Position numbers and translations under genes: made by a program. The notes under the pieces were generated by a model. That model did not search any database and was not told where the DNA came from. It saw only the letters and a program-made list of their open reading frames with translations. From an uncultured Myxococcales bacterium (lineage in GTDB: Bacteria; Myxococcota_A; Polyangia; JAAYKL01), in contig CAYWLQ010000009.1 in NCBI GenBank assembly GCA_964458775.1, positions 3,077-67,076 of the forward strand: a DNA stretch of 64,000 nucleotides, in the 5' to 3' direction. Of the stretch, positions 10,403-57,039 are shown in pieces (the stretch's first letter is position 1; each line of letters starts with the position of its first letter).

Positions 10403-10473
10403 ATCCTATTTTTCTTCTAAAACCTGTATTCTTGTATTAAGGAAATTCAGCTACTATGCACCGGCTTGTACTG

Positions 10474-12039: not shown

Positions 12040-12635
12040 TCTACAACGATGACATCACCGGCTTTGAGCCTAAAATTAATTCCATATCTCGAACTCGTGG
12101 TGAGACTGTTGTAATTGAAACGTATTCTATCCGGCAACTCCTTGGATCTCAAAACATATATACTTTTTTTATTCGCAAACTCTGTTAATCCGCCTGCCTG
12201 CGCCAGTATATCAAGAATTGTATCATTTGTTCTGAGTTCAATTCTTCCCGGAGATGCAATCTCTCCTAAAACGGTTACATATTCTGGAGATACTTGTCGA
12301 GATATTACTACCACTCTAACATCGTGAACTATTCCCCCTTGCTCAAGTTTATTCTTTATTAAATCTGCTGTTTCTAAAGGCGTAGTTCCTACTACCGACA
12401 ACTCTCCTACAAGGGGTAAGCTGATTACACCATCCATGCGTACTCGGTATATTCCTGAAATCTGTGATTGATCCCAAACCACAACCTCAACTTCATCGCC
12501 ATACTGTATTCGGTATTCTTGAATTTTTAACTCTTCAGCCGCCGGTAGGTGCTCTACCCAGACAAACGGAGAACCGCATGATAGTTGTAGTAATGATGTT
12601 ACAAAAAGACTTAAACAATTAAAAAACAAACGCAT
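12036..12635 (-). CDS. wza: short (class-3-like) Wza/OPX polysaccharide export protein
   Basis: Signal peptide followed by Poly_export (PES) and SLBB motifs ('YRIQYGDEVEVVVW', 'DGVISLPLVGELSVVGTT', 'LDILAQAGG', 'AGDVIVV'). Only 199 aa, so the C-terminal outer-membrane-spanning helix of full-length Wza is absent. Confidence 0.8.
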   Translation of the reverse strand: MRLFFNCLSLFVTSLLQLSCGSPFVWVEHLPAAEELKIQEYRIQYGDEVEVVVWDQSQISGIYRVRMDGVISLPLVGELSVVGTTPLETADLIKNKLEQGGIVHDVRVVVISRQVSPEYVTVLGEIASPGRIELRTNDTILDILAQAGGLTEFANKKSIYVLRSKELPDRIRFNYNSLTTSSRYGINFRLKAGDVIVVE

Positions 12636-12660
12636 ATCTCACCTATTATATTTTTTTCTT

Positions 12661-14124: not shown

Positions 14125-14304
14125 ATTTTCTTTTCTATTCGTATTGATATCACTACCTACATCAATATCAATTAAATTTGTTACATTTGCTTACACTATT
14201 ATAGTTCTTAATATCAATTTTATTAGTCCATGATGAATACGCTATATAACATCTTTTTTTTCCTGTGAGGAAAAATGCAGATTAAAAGATCTAAGAAAAG
14301 TACG

Positions 14305-16785
14305 TCAGTCTTTTAGCCGCATACCAAGTAGGTAGCCGTATAGAGCGGTCTTGCCGCGCATGGTCTGTTGGGGAGTGAACTCCGAGTGTGCATATACATA
14401 TCTGGTATTGAAAAACATCTCGGCTCGCGGCCAGTTACCCGGTGCTTCGGGATAGCATTTCTCTGTCATCCAGCTGGGTTTACCCATTATACTATTGGGC
14501 GTCCAGTCATTAAGGCCCATATAGGGAGTATGCCCCGGATGCATTCCCGGGGTACCGTCATTTCGGCCGGAGGTATAGGCTGCTTCAATGCTGCGCTTGT
14601 TCGCCAGGGGAGTGGTTGCGGTGGTCATCTGGATGAGGTTGGCCGGATTGCGCCCCATGCTCCAGTCGGCCTCCAGCACCAGTGCCCTTTCGAAGAAGGC
14701 TTTGTCCGCCGGATCCGTTGCAACCGCGTGGGCCAGGATCGTTCGATGAACAAACTGGATGGTGTGAAAGTAGCCTGTCAGGTTATCTGTAGACCGTCTT
14801 GAAGGTCGCGTTTTTGAGTAGCCGGCTTCCTTTTCCTTTGCCTGGCGGATGACTGAGTTTCGCATATCGGCATGAAGCTGTTTATGGTGAACTTCCCGTT
14901 CAGTGGTCAGATAGGCGGCCATGGCATAGAGCTGGTTGCGTTTGAGGTGTTGAGTAAATTCCGAAGTGCCGTCTGTGACGAGGCTCTCTTCTTTTATAAT
15001 ATCTTCATAAGCGGTATCGCCGGTTAGATTATAGAGAAAAGCCGCAGCGGTCATACGAAAATCTCGGCCATAGAAGCCGGATTCTCCCACTCCCTGAAGG
15101 GTATCCGGCATTTGTTCAGGCAGGTTTGATGCGTAGTTCCAAGCTTCCAGAGCCGCATTGAGATAGGTGTCGGATAAATCCTTATTTCCAAAAATTCTAA
15201 ATGCCTCAGACAGCATGGCGGCGTTTGTCGCATTTGCCCACGCCGCAATCGCCGTGTTGTCGGCCTGATACAATATATTGGTTTTCCTGTCCGGATTTGA
15301 CAAACCGTGGCTGTAGCCTCCTTCAAATCGCATAGATAACCAAAAATCGACTTCATTGCGTGCTTCATCGATAATATCCGGGATACCGTTGCCGCTCTCT
15401 GCTATACCCAGCTCGTCCGAGGAGATGGCGCCGCGGGTGAGAATGTACGGCAGGAGCATATCGTAGATGATAGAAACATGTCCAATGTGGCGGTCCCAGT
15501 CCAGTGCGTCGCTGTGGCCTCCCTTTGCGTTAGGATTTTCAGGGCTGCCCTCCTTGATGTACTTGGCAAAGAAATCCGGTTGATCCCATCGATCACCTCC
15601 GCCCTCCCATTCCGGCCTATACGGATGCATGTCAGTAATTAACACCTTGCAGTTCTTGGGATCTTTTCCGGGAATCCATAGGGGACGGCGAGGTACGGGA
15701 GTCATGTCCATGTTGTCCTGACCGATTCGCATGTAGAAGAATCCAAGTACAGAGACCCTAAAAGGCTCAAACACCGCACGCTCGCCTATGACGAAGTTTT
15801 GACTCGCGCCTACCCCTTCAACGACCAATCGGTATACTCCAGGTGCATGATTTCCGTCGAAATCAACATTCCATACATCAGATTGAATTAAATGATATCC
15901 TTGGACCTCGGCACTGTTCTTTTTCCAGAAAGAGACTTTTCCTACTTCATTGGATTCTTTGGTTTCTATATTATACAAGTACACCTTGTTACCTTCGAAA
16001 GACGCATAGTCACGAGCGCCGCCGTCCCCCATCCACATATAAAGATCCGCCGCCTTCACTGCAGACTTAGGATGATACCCCGAAAGGTTTACATGAATCG
16101 CTTCGGAGCGATTATTAAAAATATCAAAGGTAAAGCTATACTTCTCCACATCCGTGTTGGTCGCGGGATCTATAATCAATGTATATGTTTTGCCTTGGAC
16201 CATGGGGCGGGGCAGCTTGAGAAATATATGGTGTTCCATGGTGTGCTCAAATCGATAGTCGTTCCACCTCCATTCCCCTATTGCCATTCCATTCAGCTTT
16301 GACTTTCGATAGCTTGCCGTAGGATGAATTCCTTTATCGCTGTAGTGTTCGTCGTCCGTAGAGGTAACTGTCCAGGACGAAAGGGACCCGGTCGCCGAAG
16401 TGTTTAGCGGCTTGTCATAGCGTACTGTATAGTTATCTATTTGGTCATTGCAGTTTTCATAGGGGCAAGAGTTGTGACCGTTATCTCTGAAGAAAACATC
16501 CCCGTCCCGAAAACGCACCATCAAGTAGTCTTGATCGAGTACCTTTACACCCCTAAACTTCTTTTTTTCAAAGCCCTCTTCATCCGGATCGCGAGATGTA
16601 TCCCATAACGGGTCAGTATCCTTTCCTGAGGTACCGGTCGTTGTGGTTTTCTGTTGTTCATTGATGTGTTCTTCAGAAGAAGACGAGCTTTTCGTGTTGC
16701 ATGCCTTGCTAGCGCAGGCGGCAATCAAGACAGTAAGGCTCAAATAAATCGCTACAGCTCCGAATCGAAAAATTACATTATTCAT
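14305..16785 (-). CDS. secreted lipoprotein, glycoside hydrolase family 9-like (Ig-like N-domain plus (alpha/alpha)6 catalytic domain)
   Basis: Lipobox 'LIAAC'. 'AKGGHSDALDWDRH' resembles the GH9 'GGWYDAGD' motif, with an Ig-like domain upstream of it. The start was taken at MNNVIF (16785), which has an AGGGA RBS. Confidence 0.5.
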   Translation of the reverse strand: MNNVIFRFGAVAIYLSLTVLIAACASKACNTKSSSSSEEHINEQQKTTTTGTSGKDTDPLWDTSRDPDEEGFEKKKFRGVKVLDQDYLMVRFRDGDVFFRDNGHNSCPYENCNDQIDNYTVRYDKPLNTSATGSLSSWTVTSTDDEHYSDKGIHPTASYRKSKLNGMAIGEWRWNDYRFEHTMEHHIFLKLPRPMVQGKTYTLIIDPATNTDVEKYSFTFDIFNNRSEAIHVNLSGYHPKSAVKAADLYMWMGDGGARDYASFEGNKVYLYNIETKESNEVGKVSFWKKNSAEVQGYHLIQSDVWNVDFDGNHAPGVYRLVVEGVGASQNFVIGERAVFEPFRVSVLGFFYMRIGQDNMDMTPVPRRPLWIPGKDPKNCKVLITDMHPYRPEWEGGGDRWDQPDFFAKYIKEGSPENPNAKGGHSDALDWDRHIGHVSIIYDMLLPYILTRGAISSDELGIAESGNGIPDIIDEARNEVDFWLSMRFEGGYSHGLSNPDRKTNILYQADNTAIAAWANATNAAMLSEAFRIFGNKDLSDTYLNAALEAWNYASNLPEQMPDTLQGVGESGFYGRDFRMTAAAFLYNLTGDTAYEDIIKEESLVTDGTSEFTQHLKRNQLYAMAAYLTTEREVHHKQLHADMRNSVIRQAKEKEAGYSKTRPSRRSTDNLTGYFHTIQFVHRTILAHAVATDPADKAFFERALVLEADWSMGRNPANLIQMTTATTPLANKRSIEAAYTSGRNDGTPGMHPGHTPYMGLNDWTPNSIMGKPSWMTEKCYPEAPGNWPRAEMFFNTRYVYAHSEFTPQQTMRGKTALYGYLLGMRLKD

Positions 16786-17051
16786 GTTGTTTCCCTTCCG
16801 CACAGAACCTATTTTTGAATATCTATCAATCCAACAATACAAAACAAACGTTTTCGTAACAATTGCCTTTTGTGAAATGGCACGACTTTGGAAGGAGTCC
16901 CATTCCCGATACTGTTATATCTGTCTAGAAACCGAAAGAAACACCGCAAATCGAAACCCAAACTCTGCCTTAATTGCAAATATACGCGTCATTTTCAATT
17001 GGTTTTTCAGTTGCTAAATTCGAAAGAAGGCTGCCATGGTTATCAGAATGC

Positions 17052-17675
17052 CTACAAAGAGTCTTTAGATTTAGGCTTGAAGACAATACTTCCCAAAACT
17101 TGTTCTTGACCGATAATTTCAACTGTTCTGCGAACATCTTTGAAAGTTGTCCTTCCTAACCTAACGCAAAGTATTACAGCATCCACTTTCCGGCAGAGTG
17201 ATATGGGAGATGTGTTGTTTATCACAGAATTCACAGCGAAAACAAAACGCATATTTTGATTTTGATTTTCATTTTCTGAATATTTATCAAGCATCCACTC
17301 TGCTGTTATAAGTTGCTTTTCCGTCGTCACACCCAGAGTGGGAAGGTCCACGAATTTGTAGGGAAATTTGCTGTCTTCTTGCCCATGAACGCTTAAGTCG
17401 TGTTCGGTAACCTGGTTGTCAGCCCTATTGGAAGCATTCACTACCCAAATCAAATCGTGGGGTTCTCTAACGGCCATCAAACCAATTCCATGTGCAAATT
17501 CCAGAACGTCGATATCGTCGGTTACCGGAACCAGTGCAAGCGAAGCCCATTTCTTTCTCCGTACCATCTCGTACCAGATGTGCTGCACAGCCAAGGGAGG
17601 AAGTGCAGCATCAAGGTAGAGCTTTTTTTCGCTGTGCCTATTTTTTTTAGGGTATCTAGTAATTATATCGGTCAT
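17052..17675 (-). CDS. BY-kinase/ParA-fold-like protein lacking a Walker A P-loop (degenerate)
   Basis: The C-terminal 'VDAVILCVRLGRTTFKDVRRTVEIIGQEQVLGSIVFKP' matches the BY-kinase C-terminal consensus. The expected P-loop position reads 'KKWASLALVPV' instead of GxxGxGKS/T. Confidence 0.35.
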   Translation of the reverse strand: MTDIITRYPKKNRHSEKKLYLDAALPPLAVQHIWYEMVRRKKWASLALVPVTDDIDVLEFAHGIGLMAVREPHDLIWVVNASNRADNQVTEHDLSVHGQEDSKFPYKFVDLPTLGVTTEKQLITAEWMLDKYSENENQNQNMRFVFAVNSVINNTSPISLCRKVDAVILCVRLGRTTFKDVRRTVEIIGQEQVLGSIVFKPKSKDSL

Positions 17676-17905
17676 GTTTGTTATATTACAAATTGTAAGT
17701 CACAATGATATTAAGCGATAATCTTTTTAAGTAAAACAGAAATCATACTGATATAAGTAATCTGTATGTCATTGTGATAAGCAGGCACTAACCTCTTCAA
17801 CTATTAGAACATCTATTCTATTCTGTCGAATACTCAAAGCCGCAAACACTACATGTTCTAAGTTCAGCGAGTTCACTGTGTCACACATGAAAGAAACATA
17901 ATGTT

Positions 17906-19345
17906 TTAGTAGGCGTTCTGTCGTGTCTTGCGCCCGAAAACTGTCAGAAAAATAATTTTTAGGTCGAGCAGCGGGGTCCACTCCCGGATGTAGCGGAGGT
18001 CGTATTCCACGCGTTTTTGCATTTTCTCATCAGTATCGGTTTCACCCCGGTAGCCGTTCACTTGGGCCAAGCCGGTAATGCCCGGTTTTACTTTATGCCT
18101 TACCATGTAGTGATCTATAAGACCGCGATATTGCTCGTTGTGGGCGACCGCATGGGGCCTTGGGCCGACGATGGACATTTTTCCGGTAATCACATGCAGA
18201 AATTGGGGTAACTCGTCCATCGAAGTTTTTCTCAAAAAGGCACCGATCCGTGTTATCCGCGGGTCGTCTTTTGTTGCTTGACGGACATCCGTACCGTTTT
18301 CCATGACGCTCATTGATCGAAACTTCAACACATCAATTGGTTCACCGTTGAGACCGTAGCGAGTTTGTTTGAAAAAAACCGGACCCTTACTGGTCAACTT
18401 AATGGCAAGTGCAATAGCAATCATGGGAATTGCGGTAATGGCTAACAAAACTATACCAAGCAATACATCTTCAATCTGCTTTACCGCACCCATCATACCG
18501 TTGTATGGCGATTCTACGATTCCTAGCACGGACACATCGCCAAGTTGACTCCAACGCGGGGCGGTTCTTCTGGAAAGCAGGTTGAACCCGCTGAAATCGT
18601 GCGCGATGTAAATGGATGCGGTGGTGCGTCCCAATTGCCTTGTCAGTTCGGCAATGCGAGATTCGGCCCTCATGGGTAAGGCGATGTAGACACGATCAAT
18701 ATCTCCATTTTGGGCGCTTTCGACCAGCTCTTGGTAGTTACCTAAGAAGGGGCCGAGGGCTTCGCTGCCATCCGGTCGTCGTTTCACATTACGGTCTTCG
18801 TAATGTCCTACAATATCAATTCCGAGCCAGGGTTTCAGGGTAATACTTTTAGCAAGTTGCGCGCTCATGTTGGTTACGCCGGCAATGACTGCTTTTTTTG
18901 TATTATGACCGCCGGCTCTCACGGTTCTGAGCGCAACAGCTACTAATACGTGGCAGATCGAAACAAACAAGGGAGCCATAATGAACCAGGTTGTTGTAAT
19001 AATGCGAGAATAACTGTCAGTTACTTTGGCCATAAAGCCAATCATCAACAGTCCGGCGATAGCGATAGCCCAGGCAGACCAAATTCGACCGATGTGCCCC
19101 GAAAGATTATCATCCCGATAGGAGCTGTATACTCCGCTTATCTCGGCGAACAAGCCAAAAAGCAATGCTCCCAAAATGCCTGAAACGAGATAAAAACTCA
19201 TCCACGGCTGCCCGAAAATCAAACAGGTTGCATATAGCACCAGCACAATTGTCAAGCCATCCGTAATACGGGCAAGCCACCGCATAATTGTAATATTTTC
19301 AAATATTTTTTGAATTAAGCTAATTTTCAACATACACAATAACAA
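17906..19345 (-). CDS. polyprenyl-phosphate hexose-1-phosphate transferase (WbaP/EpsB-type priming glycosyltransferase)
   Basis: N-terminal TM block, and a C-terminal bacterial sugar transferase domain ('KGPVFFKQTRYGLNGEPIDVLKFRSM', 'DELPQF', 'MSIVGPRPH'). Confidence 0.85.
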   Translation of the reverse strand: MLLCMLKISLIQKIFENITIMRWLARITDGLTIVLVLYATCLIFGQPWMSFYLVSGILGALLFGLFAEISGVYSSYRDDNLSGHIGRIWSAWAIAIAGLLMIGFMAKVTDSYSRIITTTWFIMAPLFVSICHVLVAVALRTVRAGGHNTKKAVIAGVTNMSAQLAKSITLKPWLGIDIVGHYEDRNVKRRPDGSEALGPFLGNYQELVESAQNGDIDRVYIALPMRAESRIAELTRQLGRTTASIYIAHDFSGFNLLSRRTAPRWSQLGDVSVLGIVESPYNGMMGAVKQIEDVLLGIVLLAITAIPMIAIALAIKLTSKGPVFFKQTRYGLNGEPIDVLKFRSMSVMENGTDVRQATKDDPRITRIGAFLRKTSMDELPQFLHVITGKMSIVGPRPHAVAHNEQYRGLIDHYMVRHKVKPGITGLAQVNGYRGETDTDEKMQKRVEYDLRYIREWTPLLDLKIIFLTVFGRKTRQNAY

Positions 19346-31186: not shown

Positions 31187-32305
31187 ATGAAGCGTATCGT
31201 TCCTATTATCATCCTGTGTATCGGTGTCGTCGCTGCTTCTCCGGCACTTTGTCAGAAAAAAAAAGCTAAGGTACTGTTTGACGCCGGAGTAACTGCTCTT
31301 GAACAGAAAGACTATTCCAAAGCATTGCAATCATTTCAGGATGCATATTCACTAAGTCCTCATTGGGCTGTTTTAGCTCATATCGGCACATGTTATGCCA
31401 GATTGGATCAACCGGAAAAAGCAATACAAAGTTTTCAAACCTATCTGGAAGAAGGAGGCAAACAAATTCCCCCTGATGAAAGAAAAACAGCCGAGGAAAT
31501 GATAGTACAACAAAAGCGTAAACTCGGTACTTTAGTTTTGTCTGTGGGGAAAGACGGTGTTGAAGCACTTATAGATGGGGAATCTATCGGTAAATCACCA
31601 TTCAATGATATTGTTCTGTCTCCCGGCTTGCATGAGATTGCTGTAATCTTTGGACCGAGTGATATTGTAAAGCGTAAAATTGACTTGCTTTCGGGACAGG
31701 AGTTTATTCTTCGCATTGAGCAAGAAAAGCATGTTTCCACAGCACCCGAGACGACTTTGGTACAAGAATCAGAATCGAAACCCAAAAAATCCGAAACAAA
31801 AACATCTCAAATGGAAGAGACAAATCCGGTTTTTAGTGCTCCGCCTTCTTCTTCTGAAAAGGTAAAAGGAAGTGCTGTTCCATTCGGATTATCTCTGGGG
31901 CTGACAATAGCCGACCTTATAGCAACGGGTGTAAGTTGGGGACTATTTTCTTATTATAACTCTTCCGCAAAGAACTATAAAAACGATTTGGATTTGCAGG
32001 TTGAAATTTACGGTTGGGATTTTACTTGGGAAGAAACCTGTTCGCAGATTAAGGTTTCGACAAAATCAGAAGAGTATTACTGTAATACAGAACTGAATCG
32101 AAGAGATTTTGTAAAGAAAGCAGATACCTGGAAAATTGTAGGCATTGCCACCTCAGCAGCGTTGGGTGTAACCCTTACAACTACTCTAATATTCGGTCTC
32201 AATCGTCATTGGTTCGGCGGAAGCAAAAACAATGAAGCTGCACTTTCTTTTATTCCCTTTGTAAGCCCTAAAGAAAACGGTTTTGTTTTGAGTTTATCAT
32301 TCTAA
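31187..32305 (+). CDS. TPR-repeat, PEGA-domain, C-terminal membrane-anchored protein
   Basis: Signal peptide. TPR-like 'DYSKALQSFQDAYSLSP...AHIGTCYARLDQPEKAIQSFQTYL'. PEGA 'LVLSVGKDGVEALIDGESIGKSPF...HEIAVIFG'. Two C-terminal TM helices. Confidence 0.55.
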   Translation: MKRIVPIIILCIGVVAASPALCQKKKAKVLFDAGVTALEQKDYSKALQSFQDAYSLSPHWAVLAHIGTCYARLDQPEKAIQSFQTYLEEGGKQIPPDERKTAEEMIVQQKRKLGTLVLSVGKDGVEALIDGESIGKSPFNDIVLSPGLHEIAVIFGPSDIVKRKIDLLSGQEFILRIEQEKHVSTAPETTLVQESESKPKKSETKTSQMEETNPVFSAPPSSSEKVKGSAVPFGLSLGLTIADLIATGVSWGLFSYYNSSAKNYKNDLDLQVEIYGWDFTWEETCSQIKVSTKSEEYYCNTELNRRDFVKKADTWKIVGIATSAALGVTLTTTLIFGLNRHWFGGSKNNEAALSFIPFVSPKENGFVLSLSF

Positions 32306-32420
32306 CCTCCCTCAGTATTTGACAATAACTTCATCTGCGTTACGAATAAGCAGAAGGCTGAACTGTACTGCAAACAAAAAAACAGTAGATCGATTAGTAG
32401 ATCTCAAGGAGGCGGTTTAA

Positions 32421-32912
32421 ATGACACAAATTACTTTCAAAGGAAATCCGTTAAATACAGTAGGAACCTTGCCTAACAAGGGAAACGTTGCTCCCAAATT
32501 TTCTCTTGTCGGTCTTGACCTTAGAGATATGGAACTAAAAGATTTTTCAGGGAAGAAGGTTCTAAATATTTTTCCAAGCATTGATACTCCTGTATGTGCA
32601 ACATCGGTTCGCAAATTCAACGAACATGCTGCTTCGAAACCGGGTGTTGTTGTACTAAATATCTCAGCAGATCTTCCTTTTGCTCAACAACGTTTTTGCG
32701 GTGCAGAAGGAATAGACAAAGTTGTAATGCTGTCTTCTTTTCGTTCTAACTTTGCAACTGACTACGGTCTACAAATAGCTGACGGTCCCTTAGCAGGGCT
32801 TTGTTCCAGAGCGGTAATCGTTCTCGATGAACAGAACCGAGTGGTTTACACCCAGCAAGTAAAAGAAATAGCCGAAGAACCTGACTACGAAGCAGCTTTA
32901 GCAGTGTTATAG
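32421..32912 (+). CDS. tpx: thiol peroxidase (atypical 2-Cys peroxiredoxin Tpx)
   Basis: 'FPSIDTPVCATSVRKFN' peroxidatic-Cys motif and a resolving Cys. 163 aa. AAGGAGG RBS 10 nt upstream. Confidence 0.9.
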   Translation: MTQITFKGNPLNTVGTLPNKGNVAPKFSLVGLDLRDMELKDFSGKKVLNIFPSIDTPVCATSVRKFNEHAASKPGVVVLNISADLPFAQQRFCGAEGIDKVVMLSSFRSNFATDYGLQIADGPLAGLCSRAVIVLDEQNRVVYTQQVKEIAEEPDYEAALAVL

Positions 32913-33022
32913 AAAAGCATTTACATGATTTGTTTCTTGCTTCAAGGGATGAACATTTTTCTCATTTGCCGCAAATTCCAATTGTTTAGGAAAAGAATTA
33001 TTGAATCCAAAATTATCGGCTG

Positions 33023-34507
33023 TTACTTAGCGGCGTTAAAGGTAACCCACAGCCAGGCTCCCTGTCTAAAAACCCTCAGCACCACTGTTGTCCCTGCTTT
33101 TACCTTTTTTGCTTCATTCTTAAAGTCAGCAGAGGTTTTAACCGGTGTTCGATTAATTTCGAGAATAATATCTCCCTGCTGAAGCACACCGTATGCAGGA
33201 CTGTCTGCAGATATGCCTGTTACTACAGATCCAAAGGCTACATCATCTGCTCCCAATCGACGCTTTAGTCGTTCGTCAAGGTTTTCCAGGGTCAACCCAA
33301 AATCATTTTCACTTTTTGAACCTGTGGCAGTTTTGCTCTCTGTTTCATTGGACGGCATTTTTCCTATTTCGATCTTTAGAGTTGTTTCTTTACCGTCACG
33401 AAAAACCTTAAAAGGAGCTGTGGTGCCCGGCTTTATTTTGGCCACCATATGCGGAAGCTGTTTGGATTCTTTTAACGGCTTGCCGTCAACGGTTAAAATA
33501 ACATCGCCGGGTTTCATTCCGCCTTTGGCTGCAGGAGAGTCGGGAGTAACATTGGCTACCACAGCTCCGGTCTTTCCTGATAGACCGAAGGCTTTTGCCA
33601 ATTCCTCGGTCATAGGTTGAAAAGCAATTCCCAACCATCCTCTAACAACTTCTCCGCCTGAACTCAAAGACTCAATTACGCTTGCTGCAAGACTGGAAGG
33701 AATAGCAAAACCGATTCCCTGTCCCTGAGGATTTATGGCGGTATTTATTCCAATTACTTCACCTTTAAGATTAAAAAGAGGTCCTCCCGAATTTCCCGGA
33801 TTTATAGAAGCATCTGTTTGGATAAAATTGTCATAAGGCCCGGCACCGATAACACGTTCTTTTGCAGATACAATGCCGGAAGTTACGGTGTGATCCAATC
33901 CGAACGGATTTCCGATAGCCACTACGTGGTCTCCCACTTTAAGAGAATCAGAATCACCAAAAGTAACCATAGGCAAATTGGTTTTTGCATTAAGATTCTT
34001 TATTTTCAGCAAAGCAACATCTGTACGCTCATCCGCGCCGACTAACTCAGCCGTAAATATTTGCTCATCCGAAAGTTGAACCTCTATTTCATCAGCTCCG
34101 GAAATAACATGGTTGTTGGTTACCACCAAACCGCTCTTATCGATAATAAAACCGGAACCCAAACTTCTCTGCTCAGGAAGCTGATTGGGCATAGGAGAGC
34201 GTCTAGGTTGTCCGAAAAACCATTCAAAAATATCCGGACCGAAGGGCATCATATTGGGAGACATTTTAGGTTTAGATTTGGTTCGAATATTGACCACAGC
34301 AGGAGATACCCTTTCTACCAAGGGTGCAAGCGATACACGAGGATCATAGGAGGTTGGATTAAGAGGTGCAGAGGCCTTAGTCTGTTTGTCTTCCGAACTT
34401 TTCTGACTATTAGCCGGCGAAGCTCCACAGGCTACAGCTACAACCACGGCTATAATAATGCCGACCGCAGTATATCTCATTATATGTGTTTTTTTATTGT
34501 TTTTCAT
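33023..34507 (-). CDS. htrA: periplasmic serine endoprotease DegP/HtrA family with two PDZ domains
   Basis: Signal peptide. Trypsin-like catalytic triad context 'TNNHVI', 'TDVALLKI' and 'GNSGGPLFN'. Two PDZ-like segments. Confidence 0.9.
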   Translation of the reverse strand: MKNNKKTHIMRYTAVGIIIAVVVAVACGASPANSQKSSEDKQTKASAPLNPTSYDPRVSLAPLVERVSPAVVNIRTKSKPKMSPNMMPFGPDIFEWFFGQPRRSPMPNQLPEQRSLGSGFIIDKSGLVVTNNHVISGADEIEVQLSDEQIFTAELVGADERTDVALLKIKNLNAKTNLPMVTFGDSDSLKVGDHVVAIGNPFGLDHTVTSGIVSAKERVIGAGPYDNFIQTDASINPGNSGGPLFNLKGEVIGINTAINPQGQGIGFAIPSSLAASVIESLSSGGEVVRGWLGIAFQPMTEELAKAFGLSGKTGAVVANVTPDSPAAKGGMKPGDVILTVDGKPLKESKQLPHMVAKIKPGTTAPFKVFRDGKETTLKIEIGKMPSNETESKTATGSKSENDFGLTLENLDERLKRRLGADDVAFGSVVTGISADSPAYGVLQQGDIILEINRTPVKTSADFKNEAKKVKAGTTVVLRVFRQGAWLWVTFNAAK

Positions 34508-36166: not shown

Positions 36167-37297
36167 TTATAGTTTTGCCCTTAACGCATACCATCCTATG
36201 TTTATAGAGAACTCACATGGGTCGCAGCTTTCGCTTGCGTTAAGGCATGGTTCGCAGGTTTTATTAATCGATAGAACTGCACCTTCGGCGTCTGTTACAT
36301 TTTCTCGCCAGATGTCGGTAAACTGATTGGTTGAGTCGTAGTTAGCGGAATAGAGTTCAACATAAAAATTTATTGAATCTGTGGCTTCGTCATACATTGG
36401 ATAGTCACCGATACCTTGATTGTAGAGTGCCTCCGGAATGTAAATTCCAAGCACCCAAGCTTTATTCGGTCCGGCATTTCCTTGCGCCCAAAGATCTAAT
36501 TCCTTTTCTCCATTGTATTCGTACCAATTGGCATAAAACACATCTAGCAAAACATCTTTGCCGTCGTGCATTGCGATATAGTCAATATTGTTACCGTCAA
36601 GTAAGACTGCCGCCTCATCGTCAATTCCTACAGGTATTGAGAAGTTATCTAATGCAAATCCTCCTACTCCTAAACATAAGGGCAATCCCCAGAGATCTAC
36701 ACAAACATCTCCACATTTGCATGGATCATCTTCTGCAGATTCATCACACATCGGATAACAATAGTTTTCAGAGTATCTGGTCGACGGAAAAACCCAGCTT
36801 CCGCATTCAGAATTTTCACAGCATTCTTCTAAATCGCTACAGATGCTTCCCTCACAATCGTTGTATACACAGTCGCTGTCAGCATCGGTGTCAGCATCTG
36901 CATCTGCATCCGAATCTGTATCGGCATCAGCATCGGTATCGGCATCGATATCGGCATCAGTATCAGCATCGGCATCAGCATCTGAATTGCCGGTACATCC
37001 TTCGCATATTCCCCATTTTTGTCCGCTGCTTTCACATTCTTGAACTCCGGTTCCTCCTTCTGCACATGGACAGACTTTTAGATCACCGGGAACACACGTT
37101 TCTGAACCCAAACAACCTTTACACGGTCCCCAAGAGTTACCGTCTTCACTACAGACCTGAACCCCTGACGTATTTGTTCCGGGACACGGGCAATCTTCTT
37201 GTAAACCGGGAGGACATCCTAGAATTTCACTTGTACAGCCGAACAGTCCATTAAGATATGTCAATGCAATCAATAACGTTGCTATCGTGCGAATCAT
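36167..37297 (-). CDS. cysteine-rich-repeat lipoprotein with internal (Asp-Ala/Asp-Thr)n low-complexity tract
   Basis: Lipobox 'LFGC'. Three tandem Cys-rich repeats of the form C.C.G..G.Q.C...G..WG.C.GC (similar to the cysteine-rich repeats seen in myxobacterial secreted proteins). A 38-aa [37 protein letters not shown] tract, then a Cys-containing C-terminal domain. Confidence 0.5.
   Translation of the reverse strand: MIRTIATLLIALTYLNGLFGCTSEILGCPPGLQEDCPCPGTNTSGVQVCSEDGNSWGPCKGCLGSETCVPGDLKVCPCAEGGTGVQECESSGQKWGICEGCTGNSDADADADTDADIDADTDADADTDSDADADADTDADSDCVYNDCEGSICSDLEECCENSECGSWVFPSTRYSENYCYPMCDESAEDDPCKCGDVCVDLWGLPLCLGVGGFALDNFSIPVGIDDEAAVLLDGNNIDYIAMHDGKDVLLDVFYANWYEYNGEKELDLWAQGNAGPNKAWVLGIYIPEALYNQGIGDYPMYDEATDSINFYVELYSANYDSTNQFTDIWRENVTDAEGAVLSINKTCEPCLNASESCDPCEFSINIGWYALRAKL
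36875..36988 (-). repeat. tandem hexanucleotide (GCATCR)n repeat encoding (Asp-Ala)n
   Basis: Plus-strand DNA reads ...gcatcggtgtcagcatctgcatctgcatccgaatctgtatcggcatcagcatcggtatcggcatcgatatcggcatcagtatcagcatcggcatcagcatct... Confidence 0.8.
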
Positions 37298-37356
37298 CGC
37301 GAGCTCCTTTTCTTAATCCATAACTTCAAAAAGCAGTTTAAGGATTTTCTAATATC

Positions 37357-38868
37357 CTATTTAAAAACGAAGGTGATATCCAGCTCTAGACTAATAAAAC
37401 GAGGTAAATTGTTTTTATCTGAAAGTAATGTGCGTGTTTTTTCATCCATGGTTTTTGCGGCAGAAGATGCGTCGGCGTTTTCGTCAGCAGCCGGCAGAGC
37501 ATTAATTTGACCCAATTCGCTGCATACCTTGGAAGTGCTTTTTAAACTCTGCCTAATTGGATCGTATACTCTTGAGCAAGCATATTTCCAGAAAGGCAAA
37601 AGCCACTGTACGTGAACACCGAAGGCTACTGACGGAGCGGCAAAAAAATTAACCCCGATTTCAGGTGTTACGGTAAAACCCTTAAGAGATACGATCTCTC
37701 GTCTTTTGGAAAGCGTACTTATTGTTTCTTGGTACTCTTCCGGAATATCAAACATCGATCCGTCTAATCCCTCAGTGTTTTGTGCAAACAAAAGCCAGGA
37801 ATGGCCGAAATCTATTCCTATATACGGATCCACGGGAAATCTTCTAACCGGATGAATTCGCAAACCGCCGAAAACTCCTGCATATACAAAAGCCTTGTCA
37901 GCATTTAGAAATACTTCTACGTCGGTAGAAATCGGCATTTGGTGATCAAAGGCAACAGCGGTAAACGATAGAGAGACATAAGAAGCTATACGAACTCCCA
38001 ATCTGATACGACCTCCGTAACCCTTTTTTGCCGATTCGCATATTCCTTCACGCATGCACCATGAAAACATAAATCCCAACTCACCGAACATTCCGGAGTG
38101 ATCCCATTTCTTCCAATCTTTTTTCTTTTTGGGAGCATCATCTAAATCTGAAACTGTAAACTCATCCTCAATTTCAATTTCTTCAGGCTCTTCATGAACC
38201 TCAGGTAATTTTTGAATCACAGGTAAAGGTTCAAAAGCCTCCGACTTTATGAGACGTTCCGGATTTGCCATATAAATTTCGGGAAAAGGTGCGTGCATAG
38301 GATCAGGGCTTTTTCCCAGTAGGTTTGCAACCACGACTGCCGTTGCAGGAATGAACGCTTCTGAGCGATACGGGATTTCCCCTCTAAAAGGAAGTTTAAC
38401 AGTTAATAATCTTATCGATCCTGTTTTAACGTTCATAGCAGCCATATCCAAGAAGTGCTCTTTGGAAACTGTTTCATGGATGTTTGAAATAATAATCAAG
38501 TCAGCGCCGATAGAAACACCTGCTTCTTTTAGTTGAAACCGTGTAGGTTTTCCTTCGACCCCTTTTTTATTTAGTGCTTTATCAACCTCTTGTTCTTTTT
38601 TTACATCATATCCTTGAAGCTTTAGTTGCTCTTTTATTTCCTCAAAACACAACTTTAGTTCCGACAAAGTTAGAGTTCCGAAGGTTGAAGCCGCCCCTGC
38701 TATCGGCAACTGAACGGTGTCTTGCTGTAATCCCGCTTCTGCAGATTCAGAATCGTTAGGCAAAGTTGACTGTTCATCAGCAAAAACACTTTTTGGAAAG
38801 AACCAAATTGTACAAACAGAAAAAATTATAATTATTAATTGTAACAAGCTTTTAAAAAATCTTTCCAA
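37357..38868 (-). CDS. secreted hypothetical protein (signal peptide, beta-rich C-terminal half)
   Basis: N-terminal signal peptide 'IIIIFSVCTIWFFPKSVFA'. No enzymatic motif found. Confidence 0.3.
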   Translation of the reverse strand: MERFFKSLLQLIIIIFSVCTIWFFPKSVFADEQSTLPNDSESAEAGLQQDTVQLPIAGAASTFGTLTLSELKLCFEEIKEQLKLQGYDVKKEQEVDKALNKKGVEGKPTRFQLKEAGVSIGADLIIISNIHETVSKEHFLDMAAMNVKTGSIRLLTVKLPFRGEIPYRSEAFIPATAVVVANLLGKSPDPMHAPFPEIYMANPERLIKSEAFEPLPVIQKLPEVHEEPEEIEIEDEFTVSDLDDAPKKKKDWKKWDHSGMFGELGFMFSWCMREGICESAKKGYGGRIRLGVRIASYVSLSFTAVAFDHQMPISTDVEVFLNADKAFVYAGVFGGLRIHPVRRFPVDPYIGIDFGHSWLLFAQNTEGLDGSMFDIPEEYQETISTLSKRREIVSLKGFTVTPEIGVNFFAAPSVAFGVHVQWLLPFWKYACSRVYDPIRQSLKSTSKVCSELGQINALPAADENADASSAAKTMDEKTRTLLSDKNNLPRFISLELDITFVFK

Positions 38869-39009: not shown

Positions 39010-40560
39010 ATGTTACGCTTCTATTGCGGAGGTGCCAAGTTGGGGATGACATTTATTGAAGCAGCCCAAGAAATACTAGAGAGAACCGGCATTCCTATGC
39101 ACGCAAAGGATATCGCAGAAAAAGCTATTGCTTCCGGTATATTATCACATGTGGGGAAAACACCTGTTCAAACCATGTCCGCACAATTATCAGCTACTGT
39201 GCTAAAAGGAGGAGATACCTTCACAAAAATTCGTCCGGGAGTGTTTGCTCTTACCAAGTGGAAAGATACAAGCACCAAAACAAATAAAAATCAGAGTCTC
39301 AAGACAGACTCGGTATCTTCGTCGACAATGAAATCATTGAATGAATCCATACCCATTGTGCCTCGTGAATTGGAGAGTGCTGTTTTTGAAAAAGAGTCTG
39401 AGGAAAAAGTACAGACATCTTTCGTAGATGGAATTTCAACGAACAGTGTATTGCAGAAAAAACGAAAACGCAGGAGGAAGAAAGCATCTAAAGCATCCTC
39501 TTCCTCTATTCCGGCAAATGAAATGGGAGGTATTGTAACAGTGTCTGACTGTCTTACAGACAAAAAAATCGAGATTTCTTCCGACGCTGTCTTGGAAAAG
39601 GAGGAGAGGGGGAAGTTTGAAAAGGCTGATTTAAGCATTTCTTCCGACATCCTCTTGGAAAAAGGGAATAGGAGGGATTTTGAAACTTCTCGTAAAACAC
39701 TTAATAAAACTGAAGTTGTTGAAGACAGAGAAAAAACGAGTGTAAAACTTACAAAAAAAAATGTTGCTGTATCAAAGCAACAGAACACTGCTTCTCCTTT
39801 GGATTTCAACCGTGATGAAATAGTTGATTATATAGAAAAGATCTTGCGAAAATCTTCTCGTCCCATACCTGCAGAAAAGATTGTTGAAGAGCTGGAGATT
39901 TCTTTCAAAGACGGAATCACCCTTATAGAAGCACTTATAATGTCCGATTCTTTTGAAAGGGAGCGTTCCGGTCGAATGCCTCGTTTTGTTAGACATAGGG
40001 GCGGATATGCTTTGCTTGAACGAGAAGTTAACAGCGAAATTGTAACACTTGAAAATCAAATCACAGAGATCAGAAGCAGGTTGTCTTATCTAGCTGAGCG
40101 TCAAATACTAAAAAAACTACGCAGTATGTCAGCTAATACATTCGTTCAAGTTATGATTATATTTTTGGAAAGACTTGGATTCGGCTCAGTCAAACCGATT
40201 TCTGTTAAAGATGATAACGGATTCTATCTGTCAGTTAAGGATAAATCGCGTAGCGGATCTTTTAGAACCGCAATTGTACTGAGACGAGATCCTGCCGAAT
40301 TCATTTTAACTGAACATGAAGTAATGGAGTTGAGAGGAACAATTCATCATTTTAACGCTATGGGAGGAATGATATTTACCACCGGACGAGCAAATGAGAA
40401 GGCTTGTGAAGAGGGACAAATTGCCAATTTACCTCCGGTTGCAGTGATTGACGGTGAGACACTAGCAAGAGAGCTCGTAAGATTGGGAGTAGGCGTCAAA
40501 GATCGTATTGTACGTCTTGCGATTTATGATGATGTTTTCTTTAATAAGATAGAATCCTAA
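39010..40560 (+). CDS. HARE-HTH (winged-helix) N-terminal domain fused to an Mrr-like restriction-endonuclease-fold C-terminal domain with degenerate catalytic residues
   Basis: N-terminal 'MTFIEAAQEILERTGIPMHAKDIAEKAI..GKTPVQTMSAQLSATVLKGGDTFTKIRPGVFALTKW' is HARE-HTH-like. C-terminal 'FVQVMIIFLERLGFGSV...DDNGFYLSV...AIVLRR...GGMIFTTGRANEKACEEGQ...VAVIDGETLARELVRLGVGV' follows the Mrr_cat pattern, but the GiD and QxK positions are replaced. An internal 2x repeat '(I)SSDAVLEKEERGKFEKADLS / ISSDILLEKGNRRDFETS' lies in the middle. Confidence 0.55.
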   Translation: MLRFYCGGAKLGMTFIEAAQEILERTGIPMHAKDIAEKAIASGILSHVGKTPVQTMSAQLSATVLKGGDTFTKIRPGVFALTKWKDTSTKTNKNQSLKTDSVSSSTMKSLNESIPIVPRELESAVFEKESEEKVQTSFVDGISTNSVLQKKRKRRRKKASKASSSSIPANEMGGIVTVSDCLTDKKIEISSDAVLEKEERGKFEKADLSISSDILLEKGNRRDFETSRKTLNKTEVVEDREKTSVKLTKKNVAVSKQQNTASPLDFNRDEIVDYIEKILRKSSRPIPAEKIVEELEISFKDGITLIEALIMSDSFERERSGRMPRFVRHRGGYALLEREVNSEIVTLENQITEIRSRLSYLAERQILKKLRSMSANTFVQVMIIFLERLGFGSVKPISVKDDNGFYLSVKDKSRSGSFRTAIVLRRDPAEFILTEHEVMELRGTIHHFNAMGGMIFTTGRANEKACEEGQIANLPPVAVIDGETLARELVRLGVGVKDRIVRLAIYDDVFFNKIES

Positions 40561-52563: not shown

Positions 52564-55086
52564 CTAAAAGAAATTCCCGAAGGTAAACTCAAACATAAAA
52601 TTATCTTCGTCATTGTATGTTTTTGTGGGCCATCCCCATTCAAAACGAAGAGGTCCCATCGGCGACATCCATCTAAATCCGAAACCTGCAGAAGTTCTGA
52701 GATATACCGGATTACGATTGCAAGGATCATTAAATACATTAATGCCTCTTCCAGTACCTGCCTGACACCAAGTATCTTCTAAATTAAACGAGTTACCTGC
52801 ATCAAAAAATACAACCCCCTTAATTCCCATCATCTCAACAATTGGAAATTCTATTTCAGTATTAAAAGTAACCCGCATATTTCCGCCGATATTAACACCG
52901 TAGTTCATCGGCGATTGATTGGGGTCAAAATTCTTTGAGATAGACAATCTCGGTCCAAGAGACCATGGGTAGAATCCTCTGACATCCATAATACCGCCTG
53001 AACGATAACGATGTACGATGGCTAACCCTTCTGAATTGTTTGAATAGATAAGTCCAAAGTTACCTTGAAAACGAAATACAAGTTTCCAAAACAACGGTGC
53101 ATACCATCTAGAGGAGAGTGAATACCGAGTAAATCCAAAATCTGACACAATATAAGGAGAAGCCCACTCTACAGACAACATATTATAGTGACCCTTGGTC
53201 GGAAACAATCTGTTATTTCTTCTGTCAAAAGCCAGCTTAGCTTGTAAAATGGAAGAAAAACCTTCTTTAAATAAGTGTGCCAGAGGCAAATCGGCAAATC
53301 CTGAATCAATGCTTCTTCCTCCGGAGATAAGCAAGCCTCTGCTTGTATCGGTGTCGACCTTGTCGTAAGAAAGGCTGTAGGTAAGATAGAGTTTTAAATC
53401 ACGATGCCCAAGAGAATGCCCAAGAGTAAGATCCCCTCCTGTTGATCTCTTGTTGTAGTCGATTTGGGACATGACTGTATTATAGATACTAAAAGCTAGA
53501 GTCCAATTGGTATCCAAGAAATAAGGTTCCCAAAAATTTCCCATAAAAATCTGACGCATGGAAGACATCTGGATTTGAAGGGATAGGGTTTGGCCGTGAC
53601 CTAAGAAGTTTTGTTCTGACACTTGAGCTTGCGCAATGAATTTTTCAATGGAGCTAATACCCATTCCCACCTGAAACTGGCCGGTATGCTTTTCTGTTAT
53701 TTCAACCGTAAGACTGATCTTGTCTTTTGAGCTTCCGGGAGTTTCTGTAATGTCGACGCTTTCAAAAAAGCCTAACTGTGTGACTCTGGCTTTTGAAGCT
53801 TCTATTCCGGTTTTGCTGTAACGAGCTCCCTCGTTAACAACTACTTCTCTTCGGATAACTCTGTCTTTGGTTTTTGTATTGCCGCGAATATCTATTCGCT
53901 CAAAATAAACCATCGGTCCGCGAACAATATCGAAAACCAAATCGACTATTCGTGTTTCGGGATTGGTCGGAGTTCCCAAATTAACATTAACGTGAGCATA
54001 GCCCTTATCTTGATAATATCGAGTAATTCGGTTTACATCTTCCATTACCGAAGTTCGAGAAAACCAAGTTTCTCGCTCTGTCTTTGCCATAGAGCGAACA
54101 ACTCTCCTTCCTCCAAGTAACTCAATCGAATTGTTGTTTTCGTCGTGTTCTTGAACTTTTATTCTTCCCACACGATATCTAGGGCCTTCTTCAATCGGAA
54201 TCGATAAAAAAATGTATCGTCGATCAGCTGAAAGTTCAACTCTGGGAGAACCGACCTTTACATCAAGATATCCGTGATCCCAATATACTGCTGAAATAAT
54301 TGTGACATCTTGTTCGAAGTTTTCCTTGTTGAAGGTTCCGGAGCTCGTCAGCATCGAAAGCGGACCTCCGGTTCTGGTAGACAAGTATCGAGCAATAGCA
54401 GCATCGGAAAGAGCTTTGTTTCCCACAAATGATATTCGCTTAACCTCTACTTTTGCATGTTCATCTATTTCAAAAACAACATCGTATGCATTTTCTCCGT
54501 TTTGTTCCAACTTGTAGTCAATAATGGATAAAAAATAACCCTTTTCAGAATACAAATCTCTGATCTTTTGTAGATTTCGATGAATAGAGGGATCATCTAA
54601 GGGTTTATTAGCCTCCAAGTCGATTACTTCTTTAATATCGTCATCATCAATCTCGCTATTACCCTCAAATTTTACCTCATTTACAGCGGGTTTTTCTTCT
54701 ATTGAAAAGACAACGACTACACCGTCCTTGTGCTCTTTGAGGCTGACTTTGATATCGCTGAAAAAACCTATTGCATATAATGATCGAATATCTCGCGCCA
54801 ATCGAGCTTCGTCATAAACAGTATTGGGACGTGTTGAAATATTCGTCCTAATATCGTTTGAGCCCACTCGCTTGTTGCCTACAACCTCAATATCAACGAC
54901 AATTCGATTTCGCGCTTTGTTAGGTGAAAGCTCTGCAAGCTCTTTTTCAAATTCAGCATTTTCATCTGTATCTGTATCTGTATCTTGATCTTGTGCGATG
55001 CTGATTTTTACTTCCGTTAAAACAATAATTGCAATACCGGCTATAACTATTGATATGAATGTATTTGATGATGAGAAACGACGCAT
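52564..55086 (-). CDS. bamA: outer membrane protein assembly factor BamA
   Basis: Signal peptide, multiple POTRA-like modules, and a C-terminal 16-strand barrel ending in 'FEFTFGNFF'. Confidence 0.9.
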   Translation of the reverse strand: MRRFSSSNTFISIVIAGIAIIVLTEVKISIAQDQDTDTDTDENAEFEKELAELSPNKARNRIVVDIEVVGNKRVGSNDIRTNISTRPNTVYDEARLARDIRSLYAIGFFSDIKVSLKEHKDGVVVVFSIEEKPAVNEVKFEGNSEIDDDDIKEVIDLEANKPLDDPSIHRNLQKIRDLYSEKGYFLSIIDYKLEQNGENAYDVVFEIDEHAKVEVKRISFVGNKALSDAAIARYLSTRTGGPLSMLTSSGTFNKENFEQDVTIISAVYWDHGYLDVKVGSPRVELSADRRYIFLSIPIEEGPRYRVGRIKVQEHDENNNSIELLGGRRVVRSMAKTERETWFSRTSVMEDVNRITRYYQDKGYAHVNVNLGTPTNPETRIVDLVFDIVRGPMVYFERIDIRGNTKTKDRVIRREVVVNEGARYSKTGIEASKARVTQLGFFESVDITETPGSSKDKISLTVEITEKHTGQFQVGMGISSIEKFIAQAQVSEQNFLGHGQTLSLQIQMSSMRQIFMGNFWEPYFLDTNWTLAFSIYNTVMSQIDYNKRSTGGDLTLGHSLGHRDLKLYLTYSLSYDKVDTDTSRGLLISGGRSIDSGFADLPLAHLFKEGFSSILQAKLAFDRRNNRLFPTKGHYNMLSVEWASPYIVSDFGFTRYSLSSRWYAPLFWKLVFRFQGNFGLIYSNNSEGLAIVHRYRSGGIMDVRGFYPWSLGPRLSISKNFDPNQSPMNYGVNIGGNMRVTFNTEIEFPIVEMMGIKGVVFFDAGNSFNLEDTWCQAGTGRGINVFNDPCNRNPVYLRTSAGFGFRWMSPMGPLRFEWGWPTKTYNDEDNFMFEFTFGNFF

Positions 55087-55434: not shown

Positions 55435-57039
55435 TTACCCTGTTTTACTCTTGTTTTTTTGCAGACGTTGATAGAGTGCGGCCCCTCTGGCATTTAGCAA
55501 CACCCAGAGTTCTCTAAATTTCGTATAAAAATATCGGTTATTATGATTTATGCGAACAGCTGATTTGACGGCAAAATCTTGTATTTCAGCTGCGGTCTTG
55601 TGATGATGGGTTAGAGAAAAATCAAGAGCAATGCGCAGCTCCTTTACGGTATCTAAATGTGCCTCTGACAGCAGATCGTCAACAGATCTGCTGATATTGT
55701 CTGTGGCTTCTCCAGGAAAAAAGGCTTCGTGTGCTTGACGAGCGAAAGAAATGCTTATGAGCTTATTTAGTAAGCTGCTTACCGCAAAAGCACGTTCGTG
55801 AAAGCTTACTCTTAAGATCCTAAACATTATTTCACAAACGGGATCTCGCATTTCGTATCCGAAGTTGCGATAGTCTCCGGTCAGTCGGTTTTCTGCTTCC
55901 AGTGCGCGCAAGAGAGGGGTCCCCGAATAAATCTCTGTTCGACAGACATTCCACGGCAAATGGTGAACTGTTTCTGCAAAGTCAATTGTGGTTGCTACAT
56001 CTTCAACAGAGCAATCCGGATCAAACAACATTAAATTGAAAGACGGTCTAATGCCGTTTTCCTCGCAGTTGCGAATAGCCTCAATATTATGAAAGTGTTG
56101 ATGGGTTCTTCCTAAATACATTAGCCTTTGGTCTGAAGCGTTTTCAACGCCCAAAAACATATGTACTACTCCAAGTTCTCGCGCTGTTTTTGCAATATCT
56201 TGGGTAATAGATTCAGGCCTTCCCTTTACCCAAAAAACAGGTGTATCAAGACCTCTTCTTTGAAGTGCAGCTGACATTTCGTGCATGCGACGAAGGGTTC
56301 TTTGTCGATTAGGCAGAACAAAGAGATCATCCTGAAAGAAGAAAGTTCTAATATCGCATTGATGGTAGTGATCTGCGATTTCGTCCGCGACGGATTCTAC
56401 TTGACGCAATCTGAGCAGCGGTCCTCCGGCATCTCTACCAAAAGACTGTATAGAACAATATGTACAAGCACCAAAACATCCCCTGGCTGTAATAACAAAA
56501 GCAACAGGCACTCCGCCTACCGAAAACGGACCGGGATTTCTTAACTTCGGTCTTGGAAGTATATCCAAATCTTTTATCGTAGGGCGCGGCGGCTCAACAA
56601 CGATGCCTCCTTCGCTTCGATATACCAACCCTTTTATTCCTTTGAGTTGTTTGCTGTTTTCAAGAGTTTCGACCAATTCATTTAAGGTATGTTCACCCTC
56701 GTGTCTTACAACTGTGTCTATTGCAGAACAGTCTTTTAGAATATTTTCGTAACAAAAGGTAGGCACATGGCCGCCGCATGTAATGTGACCGTCAAATCCT
56801 GCTTTTCGAATTACAGATGCCAAATGCAGATAGTCATTAACTGCAAATTGAAAAGAAATACCGAGACCTATTACATCTGGATTATTTTTAACTATTTGTT
56901 CGGTACATGTGTTTGTATCGTCTTTATTGTTAAAGCGAATTAATTCTGCTTCGTGACCGGCGCTTTCTAAAGAAGCAGCCAAATATCTCAGAGGCAAATT
57001 GTCTTGCTGATCGGGACCTATTAAAGCAATTTTAGCCAT
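55435..57039 (-). CDS. cobalamin (B12)-binding radical SAM (class B) enzyme
   Basis: The N-terminal B12-binding Rossmann region ('KIALIGPD...GLGISFQF...ITCGGHVPT') is followed by '[13 protein letters not shown]', a CxxxCxxC-type radical SAM cluster motif. Start taken at MAKIALIG. Confidence 0.8.

Follow-up and report, generated by a model that had tools for sequence, protein, structure and literature searches.

The stretch of DNA considered here, referred to below as the window (64,000 nucleotides (nt) of contig CAYWLQ010000009.1, assembly GCA_964458775.1, from an uncultured Myxococcales bacterium), carries a gene for a 376-residue lipoprotein precursor in which a tract of strictly alternating aspartates separates an N-terminal, putatively lipid-anchored segment from an all-β C-terminal domain. 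The results make it probable that the product is a modular lipoprotein of the cell envelope in which the Asp-X (D-X) tract serves as an extended anionic spacer or tether, with no sign of its being a hypermutable switch. The gene and its parts are located as follows.

36167..37297, minus strand: complete lipoprotein precursor gene, 376 residues, from the list of open reading frames (ORFs), with an ATG start and the stop codon at 36167..36169
37304..37309, minus strand: Shine-Dalgarno sequence AAGGAG, 6 nt 5' of the lipoprotein ATG, read from the sequence
37235..37297, minus strand: putative signal peptide and lipobox L-F-G-C, residues 1-21, assigned from sequence pattern only
37112..37216, minus strand: six-Cys module 1, residues 28-62, CPPGLQEDCPCPGTNTSGVQVCSEDGNSWGPCKGC, from a regular expression (regex) scan, a 23-module alignment, and AlphaFold2
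36995..37096, minus strand: six-Cys module 2, residues 68-101, CVPGDLKVCPCAEGGTGVQECESSGQKWGICEGC, from the same three sources
36872..36982, minus strand: (Asp-X)18-Asp tract, residues 106-142, net charge −19, a predicted disordered spacer, from the translation, AlphaFold2, and codon analysis
36170..36871, minus strand: C-terminal all-β domain, residues 143-376, with a Cys-rich head and a long-stranded β body

The ORF at 36167..37297 is a genuine gene. A protein identical to its product is present in NCBI-derived data (P0001), the best homologs have E values of 1.3e-60 in a word-indexed search and 8e-77 in a search with a profile of the C-terminal domain, and the AlphaFold2 model of the full-length protein, built on an alignment of 43 sequences, has a mean predicted local distance difference test score (pLDDT) of 86. 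Two plus-strand ORFs in the same interval, 36373..37254 and 36843..37043, were rejected as shadows of the repeat, since it is the minus-strand product that has homologs and folds confidently. No Pfam family was matched by the whole lipoprotein, its N-terminal 84 residues, or its C-terminal 234 residues at E values up to 10. The NCBIfam scan of the lipoprotein returned only low complexity matches, between the tract and the Ser-Asp repeat parts of SdrC, SdrD, ClfA, and ClfB; these are confined to residues 105-142 and score 22-24 bits against cut-offs of 999-2500. The protein does not belong with the MSCRAMM proteins of the Sdr/Clf type, there being no LPXTG motif at its C terminus (...GWYALRAKL).

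The tract consists of 37 residues, with Asp at all 19 odd positions and Ala (11), Thr (4), Ser (2), and Ile (1) at the intervening ones; in the AlphaFold2 model it has pLDDT values of 43-55 and zero secondary structure. The initial annotation of this DNA had recognized an acidic Asp-X linker, which is indeed found at residues 106-142, but it had also described the underlying DNA as a near-perfect, hypermutable (GCATCR)n array, and here the data point elsewhere. The Tandem Repeats Finder rows for the tract DNA (36879-36982) show 73% matches for a period of 6 and 79% for a period of 12. The 18 units comprise 10 different hexamers, and no perfect hexamer tandem exceeds 17 nt (2.8 units). When synonymous codons were permuted among identical residues within the tract 5000 times, the values of the natural sequence for period-6 identity, longest run, and count of identical neighboring units were all central in the null distribution (P about 0.5-0.76). 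As the observed periodicity matches that of the codon-permuted controls, the DNA repeat follows from the peptide repeat. The tract in the window is an old, codon-scrambled sequence without sign of recent slippage, and the long run of identical units by which a contingency locus is recognized is missing from it, which leaves the hypermutability attributed to this locus without a basis.

Taken as an explanation in its own right, the proposal that the tract DNA is a hypermutable contingency locus, in which slipped-strand events in 6-nt steps generate protein-length variants within and between strains, is highly improbable, though conceivable on the time scale of a population. The array is short as well as imperfect, its repeat structure is that of the permuted controls, and no length variant was found, although it should be noted that the searched collections hold no near-identical sequence other than the protein itself. 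The proposal draws on the large differences in tract length among homologs, on the nearly perfect 24-nt unit present in 5.9 copies in one of them (P0002, discussed below), and on staphylococcal surface proteins, whose imperfect 18-bp repeats encoding SD/DSDSDA range from 9 to 52 copies between isolates, a variation ascribed by the authors to slipped-strand mispairing (PMC6533592). However, the same study found a far longer array, that of fbl, to be stable over 30 subcultures (PMC6533592). Furthermore, length changes in multiples of 6 nt keep the reading frame, so that on/off switching of expression by this means is impossible.

With respect to strain variants, six of nine window proteins that were checked are present in the collection, each as a singleton at 90% identity, and apart from the identical P0001 nothing above 38-47% identity to the lipoprotein is present in the collections searched. 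In the metagenomes, a scan with the profile of the C-terminal domain returned zero relatives, P0002 also not being retrieved, and a second scan, for a wobble-tolerant DNA pattern beside the tract, gave 0 matches. Short contigs from two datasets (L004, Logan SRR8925738, and L005, JGI 3300009542) are 99-100% identical to window positions ~31560..34500, which indicates that the same population is present in both datasets; they match the window's genes for TPR, peroxiredoxin, and HtrA proteins and end ~1.7 kb short of the lipoprotein gene.

The C-terminal domain is composed of a Cys-rich head with 12 Cys (residues 143-208) and a β body with 4 more (residues 348-361), in agreement with the second Cys-rich domain proposed in the initial annotation. 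Modeled alone, it is all-β with a pLDDT of 96.1 and a predicted template modeling score (pTM) of 0.91. Foldseek searches with this model found nothing in the PDB at E<=1e-3 and nothing among the predicted viral structures of BFVD, and the profile of the domain matched nothing among PDB sequences. An exhaustive HMMER search of 1.84e9 proteins with the domain profile identified 60 representatives at E<=1e-3, 44 of them at E<=1e-10. The window protein itself scores 408 bits against the family profile of about 235 residues and is a member of the family, which is rare, unnamed, and uncatalogued; none of the members found has been annotated or characterized. Positions C38, C51, C66, G70, W139, P146, G153, C209, and C216 are near-invariant. 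The members, which include P0045, P0002, P0046, P0047, P0052, and P0053, are true homologs (E values from 8e-77 to 1e-10) that have Cys, Trp, and Gly positions and an Ile-Pro motif in common with the window protein and, in most cases, a lipobox. They differ in their N-terminal stalks, which contain 0-3 Cys modules and either D-X tracts of 0-75 residues or linkers rich in Ser, Thr, Asp, and Glu. One further member is encoded near the BamA gene of a relative (L013, 5795..6802, minus strand).

Within this family the tract comes and goes. Of the members examined, 14 have D-X tracts of 8-75 residues, which immediately follow the lipobox or flank a Cys module on one side or the other; the remaining members are tract-free, with a linker rich in Ser, Thr, Asp, and Glu or none. 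In the word-indexed search of 5.8e9 proteins, the real homologs beyond P0001 are P0002 (38% identical) and P0024 (25%). The closest homolog by profile, P0045 (E 8e-77), has both modules followed directly by the domain, with no tract, and the tract is also absent from P0053, from a Polyangia metagenome-assembled genome (MAG), and from P0052, from an assembly (GCA_050303475.1) whose BamA is 73% identical to that of the window. In P0002, a tract of 50 residues is placed before a single module; its DNA (L002, 530..670) is built of a 24-nt unit encoding DADADTDS, repeated 5.9 times at 92% identity. The P0002 tract is a recent tandem expansion, and such tracts grow by duplication of multi-codon units. 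The D-X tract is not conserved across the C-terminal domain family. The variability in tract length foreseen in the initial annotation does exist, with a range of 0-75 residues among homologs and a fresh tandem duplication in P0002. That annotation had also named two findings that would count against it, an invariant repeat number and a lack of the tract in orthologs; repeat number is not invariant, whereas the tract is lacking in P0045, P0052, and P0053.

Similar tracts are found in many proteins that are otherwise unrelated to the lipoprotein. Thirty-six of the word-search matches have only the tract, or a module and the tract, in common with it. With P0002 and P0024 counted in, the search gave 38 matches other than the protein itself, a set that owes its selection to tract or module similarity and so indicates recurrence, not frequency; all 38 contain D-X tracts, totaling 28-137 residues with a median of about 50. 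A lipobox-like motif, by a loose pattern, lies in the first 60 residues of 34 of the 38, the tract in most D-X proteins starts 10-50 residues past the lipobox Cys, and in 11 of the 38 a six-Cys module stands right after the lipobox and right before the tract. The C-terminal domains of the 38 are mutually unrelated (named from precomputed Pfam or source names) and include Lcl_C/DUF1566 (PF07603), a pectate-lyase-type set, expansin-like, esterase, trypsin, and fibro-slime domains. Internal or C-terminal tracts are found in P0048 and P0032. These sequence comparisons suggest that the D-X tract is a common, generic, and interchangeable type of linker in secreted proteins and lipoproteins of the Myxococcota. 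No description of D-X tracts in Myxococcota was found in the searchable literature, an absence that is weak evidence.

The window itself contains a second example.

57032..58270, minus strand: second D-X lipoprotein gene, with a lipobox VSGC (Cys24) and its tract at 57866..58123

In this protein a tract of 86 residues, (Asp-X)43, follows close behind the lipobox, and the C-terminal domain matches no Pfam or NCBIfam family. The tract DNA repeats at higher-order periods as well (30, 36, and 54 nt, with 75-81% identity), again no differently from codon-permuted controls. No ortholog of this gene was found near BamA in relatives, where synteny is not conserved. Its 3' end is overlapped for 71 nt by a TTG-start ORF (55435..57102, minus strand) that is radical-SAM-like by eye and whose true start is probably an internal codon. 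At another locus (L003) a D-X lipoprotein gene is located two genes from that of a member of the C-terminal domain family, and L001, L012, and L013 each carry further D-X examples; those at L012 8327..10144 (a 116-residue tract) and L001 118..687 (48 residues) lie beside unrelated genes.

The N terminus of the lipoprotein, MIRTIATLLIALTYLNGLFGC, has Arg3, a hydrophobic core, and a lipobox-like LFGC ending at Cys21, so that the n-region, h-region, and lipobox of a signal peptidase II substrate can all be recognized, in agreement with the initial annotation of the product as a lipoprotein; residues 2-14 are predicted to form a helix in the AlphaFold2 model. Most members of the C-terminal domain family have a lipobox-like Cys at the same position. 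Phe is unusual at position −2 of a lipobox, yet falls within the broad PROSITE-type pattern. By rules established in other bacteria, Cys21 would be the lipidated residue, and Thr at position +2 after it is suggestive of an outer-membrane location. The two modules that follow are 33-35 residues in length and conform to the pattern C-x-P-G-x4-C-x-C-x9-10-C-x8-9-C-x1-2-C. The regex scan found 22 such modules in 17 proteins, and that of P0012 was added by eye; in the resulting alignment of 23, all six Cys are invariant, and conservation is 90% or higher at P3, G4, G18, and G26. Both modules of the lipoprotein are modeled with good confidence and contain a β-hairpin (module 1, pLDDT ~88-90, residues 33-37 and 44-49; module 2, pLDDT ~90-92, residues 73-77 and 83-88). 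There are only two copies, at residues 28-62 and 68-101, and not the three counted in the initial annotation, and its comparison with myxobacterial Cys-rich repeats is not upheld by the TIGR04201 and TIGR02232 models, neither of which matches at E values up to 10. Residues 22-105 alone matched no family in NCBIfam or Pfam at E values up to 10. A padded profile of the module gave only two weak matches among 5.8e9 sequences, because a profile of 33 positions falls short of the bits needed against a database of that size. Among PDB sequences, an agitoxin (E 0.23) and a fibronectin type I module (E 9) were matched by the module profile; these matches are insignificant and were rejected.

A model that accommodates these observations is that, after cleavage of the signal peptide and lipidation of Cys21, the protein would be anchored by its lipid in the diderm envelope, the presence of BamA in the window indicating that the host is a diderm. 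The anchor would be followed by two small and probably rigid modules, in each of which the six invariant Cys could form three disulfides, and then by the (Asp-X)n segment, which is predicted to be intrinsically disordered and, through repulsion between its 19 negative charges, would be extended. The tract would thereby hold the functional domain off the membrane anchor, by as much as roughly 13 nm if its 37 residues are extended. The functional part would be the disulfide-stabilized, all-β C-terminal domain, which probably binds a ligand. Over evolutionary time, D-X tracts would arise, grow, shrink, and vanish by in-frame tandem duplication and deletion. We infer the role of spacer from the predicted disorder of the tract, its position between anchor and domain here and in dozens of unrelated proteins, its dispensability, and the analogy with Ser-Asp repeats. 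The Ser-Asp repeats of SdrC are intrinsically disordered and highly extended, with charge repulsion resisting compaction (PMC9881980), and the repeat region of Clf and Fbl proteins forms a flexible stalk, the length of which has an effect on ligand binding (PMC6533592). In E. coli, a disordered N-terminal linker of importance for sorting is present in about half of the outer-membrane lipoproteins (bioRxiv 10.1101/2021.01.05.425367). Several points weigh against the spacer model. Low pLDDT is only a proxy for disorder of the tract, the uncommon Phe at the −2 position and the derivation of the lipidation and sorting rules from other bacteria make the anchor less certain, and a spacer role leaves unexplained the strict alternation of Asp in place of some other acidic low complexity sequence. 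This alternation may reflect selection for cation binding, modification, or recognition.

The last point leads to the possibility that the tract is primarily a functional polyanion that binds Ca2+ or Mg2+, minerals, or cationic polymers or surfaces, the lipoprotein then being a cation-dependent adhesin or an envelope cation buffer. This makes sense chemically, if on balance unlikely, and it could coexist with a role as spacer. Asp occupies 19 of the 37 tract residues in strict alternation, and the fact that such alternation is kept across dozens of unrelated proteins hints at selection for something beyond flexibility. Many Ca2+-binding loops open with the sequence D-x-D-x-D. However, the scans of the lipoprotein against Pfam and NCBIfam returned no match to models for thrombospondin type 3 (TSP3), RTX, or EF-hand sequences, and by inspection the tract contains zero Gly and has neither the Gly nor the spacing of DxDxDG-type loops. 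Moreover, the closest homologs do without the tract, so that it is not needed for the core function of the family, and the analogous Ser-Asp repeats serve as stalks.

The gene upstream of the lipoprotein gene bears on another explanation.

37357..38868, minus strand: 503-residue secreted protein of unplaced family, 59 nt upstream of the lipoprotein gene

This protein is 43% identical over 447 residues (E 4e-130) to the product of a gene at L006 (5124..6548) that occupies the same position upstream of the gene for P0045. On the minus strand, nothing that resembles a promoter or terminator lies in the 59-nt gap, and the gene arrangement suggests that the 503-residue protein is probably an operon partner of the lipoprotein. 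The broader idea of a conserved operon was rejected, as it holds for the closest homolog only and the pairing is absent at L003, L008, and L009. The 503-residue protein has no Pfam, NCBIfam, or PDB match; by eye only, hydrophobic residues alternate in its C-terminal half in the manner of a β-barrel. Beyond it, a gene for a protein with HARE-HTH and Mrr-type restriction endonuclease domains (39010..40560, plus strand) is oriented divergently relative to the gene pair and not conserved at the homologous locus L006.

It has to be considered whether the lipobox, the Cys module, and the D-X tract together form a cassette for sorting or display, in which the acidic tether, and possibly the module too, would be recognized or needed by a machinery that flips lipoproteins to the surface and the 503-residue protein might be an outer-membrane partner. 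The cassette is portable, being found in 11 of the 38 tract-sharing proteins ahead of unrelated C-terminal domains; the tract begins 10-50 residues past the lipobox Cys in most D-X proteins; and the pairing with the upstream gene is kept in the closest homolog, P0045. An influence of disordered N-terminal linkers on lipoprotein sorting is documented in E. coli (bioRxiv 10.1101/2021.01.05.425367). On the other hand, many members of the C-terminal domain family keep the lipobox yet have neither module nor tract, the partner gene is absent at the three other family loci named above, and the internal or C-terminal tracts of P0048 and P0032 do not fit such a role. The acidic lipoprotein export signal of Bacteroidota and the disordered tethers of Borrelia surface lipoproteins are similar precedents. 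On this evidence we regard a sorting or display role as rather improbable. The same holds for its most far-reaching form, in which the portable cassette would be a surface-display or sorting device of uncultured Myxococcota, joined to many unrelated functional domains and served by dedicated envelope machinery that might include the 503-residue protein, combined here with a C-terminal fold not seen in solved structures, and which we would put forward only with considerable doubt. If true, a cassette acting as a sorting or display signal would bear on the surface exposure of lipoproteins in Myxococcota.

The spacer model has its closest parallel in the R regions of staphylococcal Clf, Sdr, and Fbl proteins. 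These also consist of X-Asp dipeptide repeats that are disordered, charged, and extended and lie between an anchor and a functional domain, and their DNA likewise consists of short, imperfect repeats whose units vary synonymously and whose length differs between lineages. They differ in being anchored through a C-terminal LPXTG motif, as opposed to an N-terminal lipid in a diderm, and in having Ser as X where the window protein has mostly Ala and Thr, so that glycosylation of the SdgA/B type is not implied. They are also longer, 100-300 residues compared with 37, and there is no homology outside the repeat. The linkers of E. coli lipoproteins such as RcsF, NlpD, and Pal are similar in forming a disordered segment between the lipidated Cys and a folded domain in a diderm, and most of the D-X proteins found likewise have the tract directly past the lipobox; however, those linkers are neither dipeptide repeats nor strongly acidic, and the window protein has two Cys modules before its tract. 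For the modules, the nearest functional analogy is with TraA, whose Cys-rich repeats have been proposed to form a rigid stalk (PMC3325183). The TraA repeats (TIGR04201) and those of TIGR02232 are tandem, Cys-rich, and presumed to be disulfide-bonded, and occur in secreted proteins of Myxococcota. However, TIGR04201 has three invariant and two marginal Cys, in contrast to the six invariant Cys of the window modules, and the TraA repeats sit before a MYXO-CTERM tag, whereas the window modules are N-terminal, beside the lipobox.

The feature in the window is a dipeptide-repeat acidic stalk, newly seen in N-terminally lipid-anchored proteins of uncultured Myxococcota, and as such the D-X tract would correspond, in a diderm and with N-terminal anchoring, to the Ser-Asp stalk of Gram-positive bacteria. 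For annotation, matches of D-X proteins to MSCRAMM, TolA, and EntC models are to be treated as low complexity artifacts. The comparisons also define two uncatalogued modules, the 33-residue six-Cys module, which is usually found right after the lipobox, and the domain of ~235 residues, whose very confident predicted structure has no relative among the solved structures searched and whose fold is possibly new; both merit consideration as new Pfam entries and as targets of structural work. A more general caution is that a repeat at the peptide level need not imply hypermutability, the DNA in this case being codon-scrambled.

The taxonomic placement of the host was based on the window's BamA.

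52564..55086, minus strand: BamA (TIGR03303, 611 bits), used for taxonomic placement

The best database relatives of this protein are 72-78% identical, and the nearest ones that carry a name, at 65-71% identity, come from MAGs labeled Myxococcota, Myxococcales, or Deltaproteobacteria. Together with the occurrence of one family member in a Polyangia MAG, this places the host among the myxobacteria, with whose secreted proteins the initial annotation had compared the Cys modules. The G+C content of the window is ~40%, compared with 55-61% for L011, L012, and L013, whose BamA proteins are 73-77% identical to that of the window, and 52-66% for the other family loci; the source lineage looks unusually AT-rich within a generally GC-rich phylum. 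The window also contains a cluster of genes for polysaccharide biosynthesis at 8933..19345, for which the best NCBIfam matches are Myxococcus-type exopolysaccharide (EPS) models. The genes matched are as follows.

8933..10402: Wzy_EPS, below the equivalog cut-off
12661..14124: EpsV-like polysaccharide co-polymerase (PCP), below the equivalog cut-off
17906..19345: WcaJ/EpsZ-like, NCBIfam match

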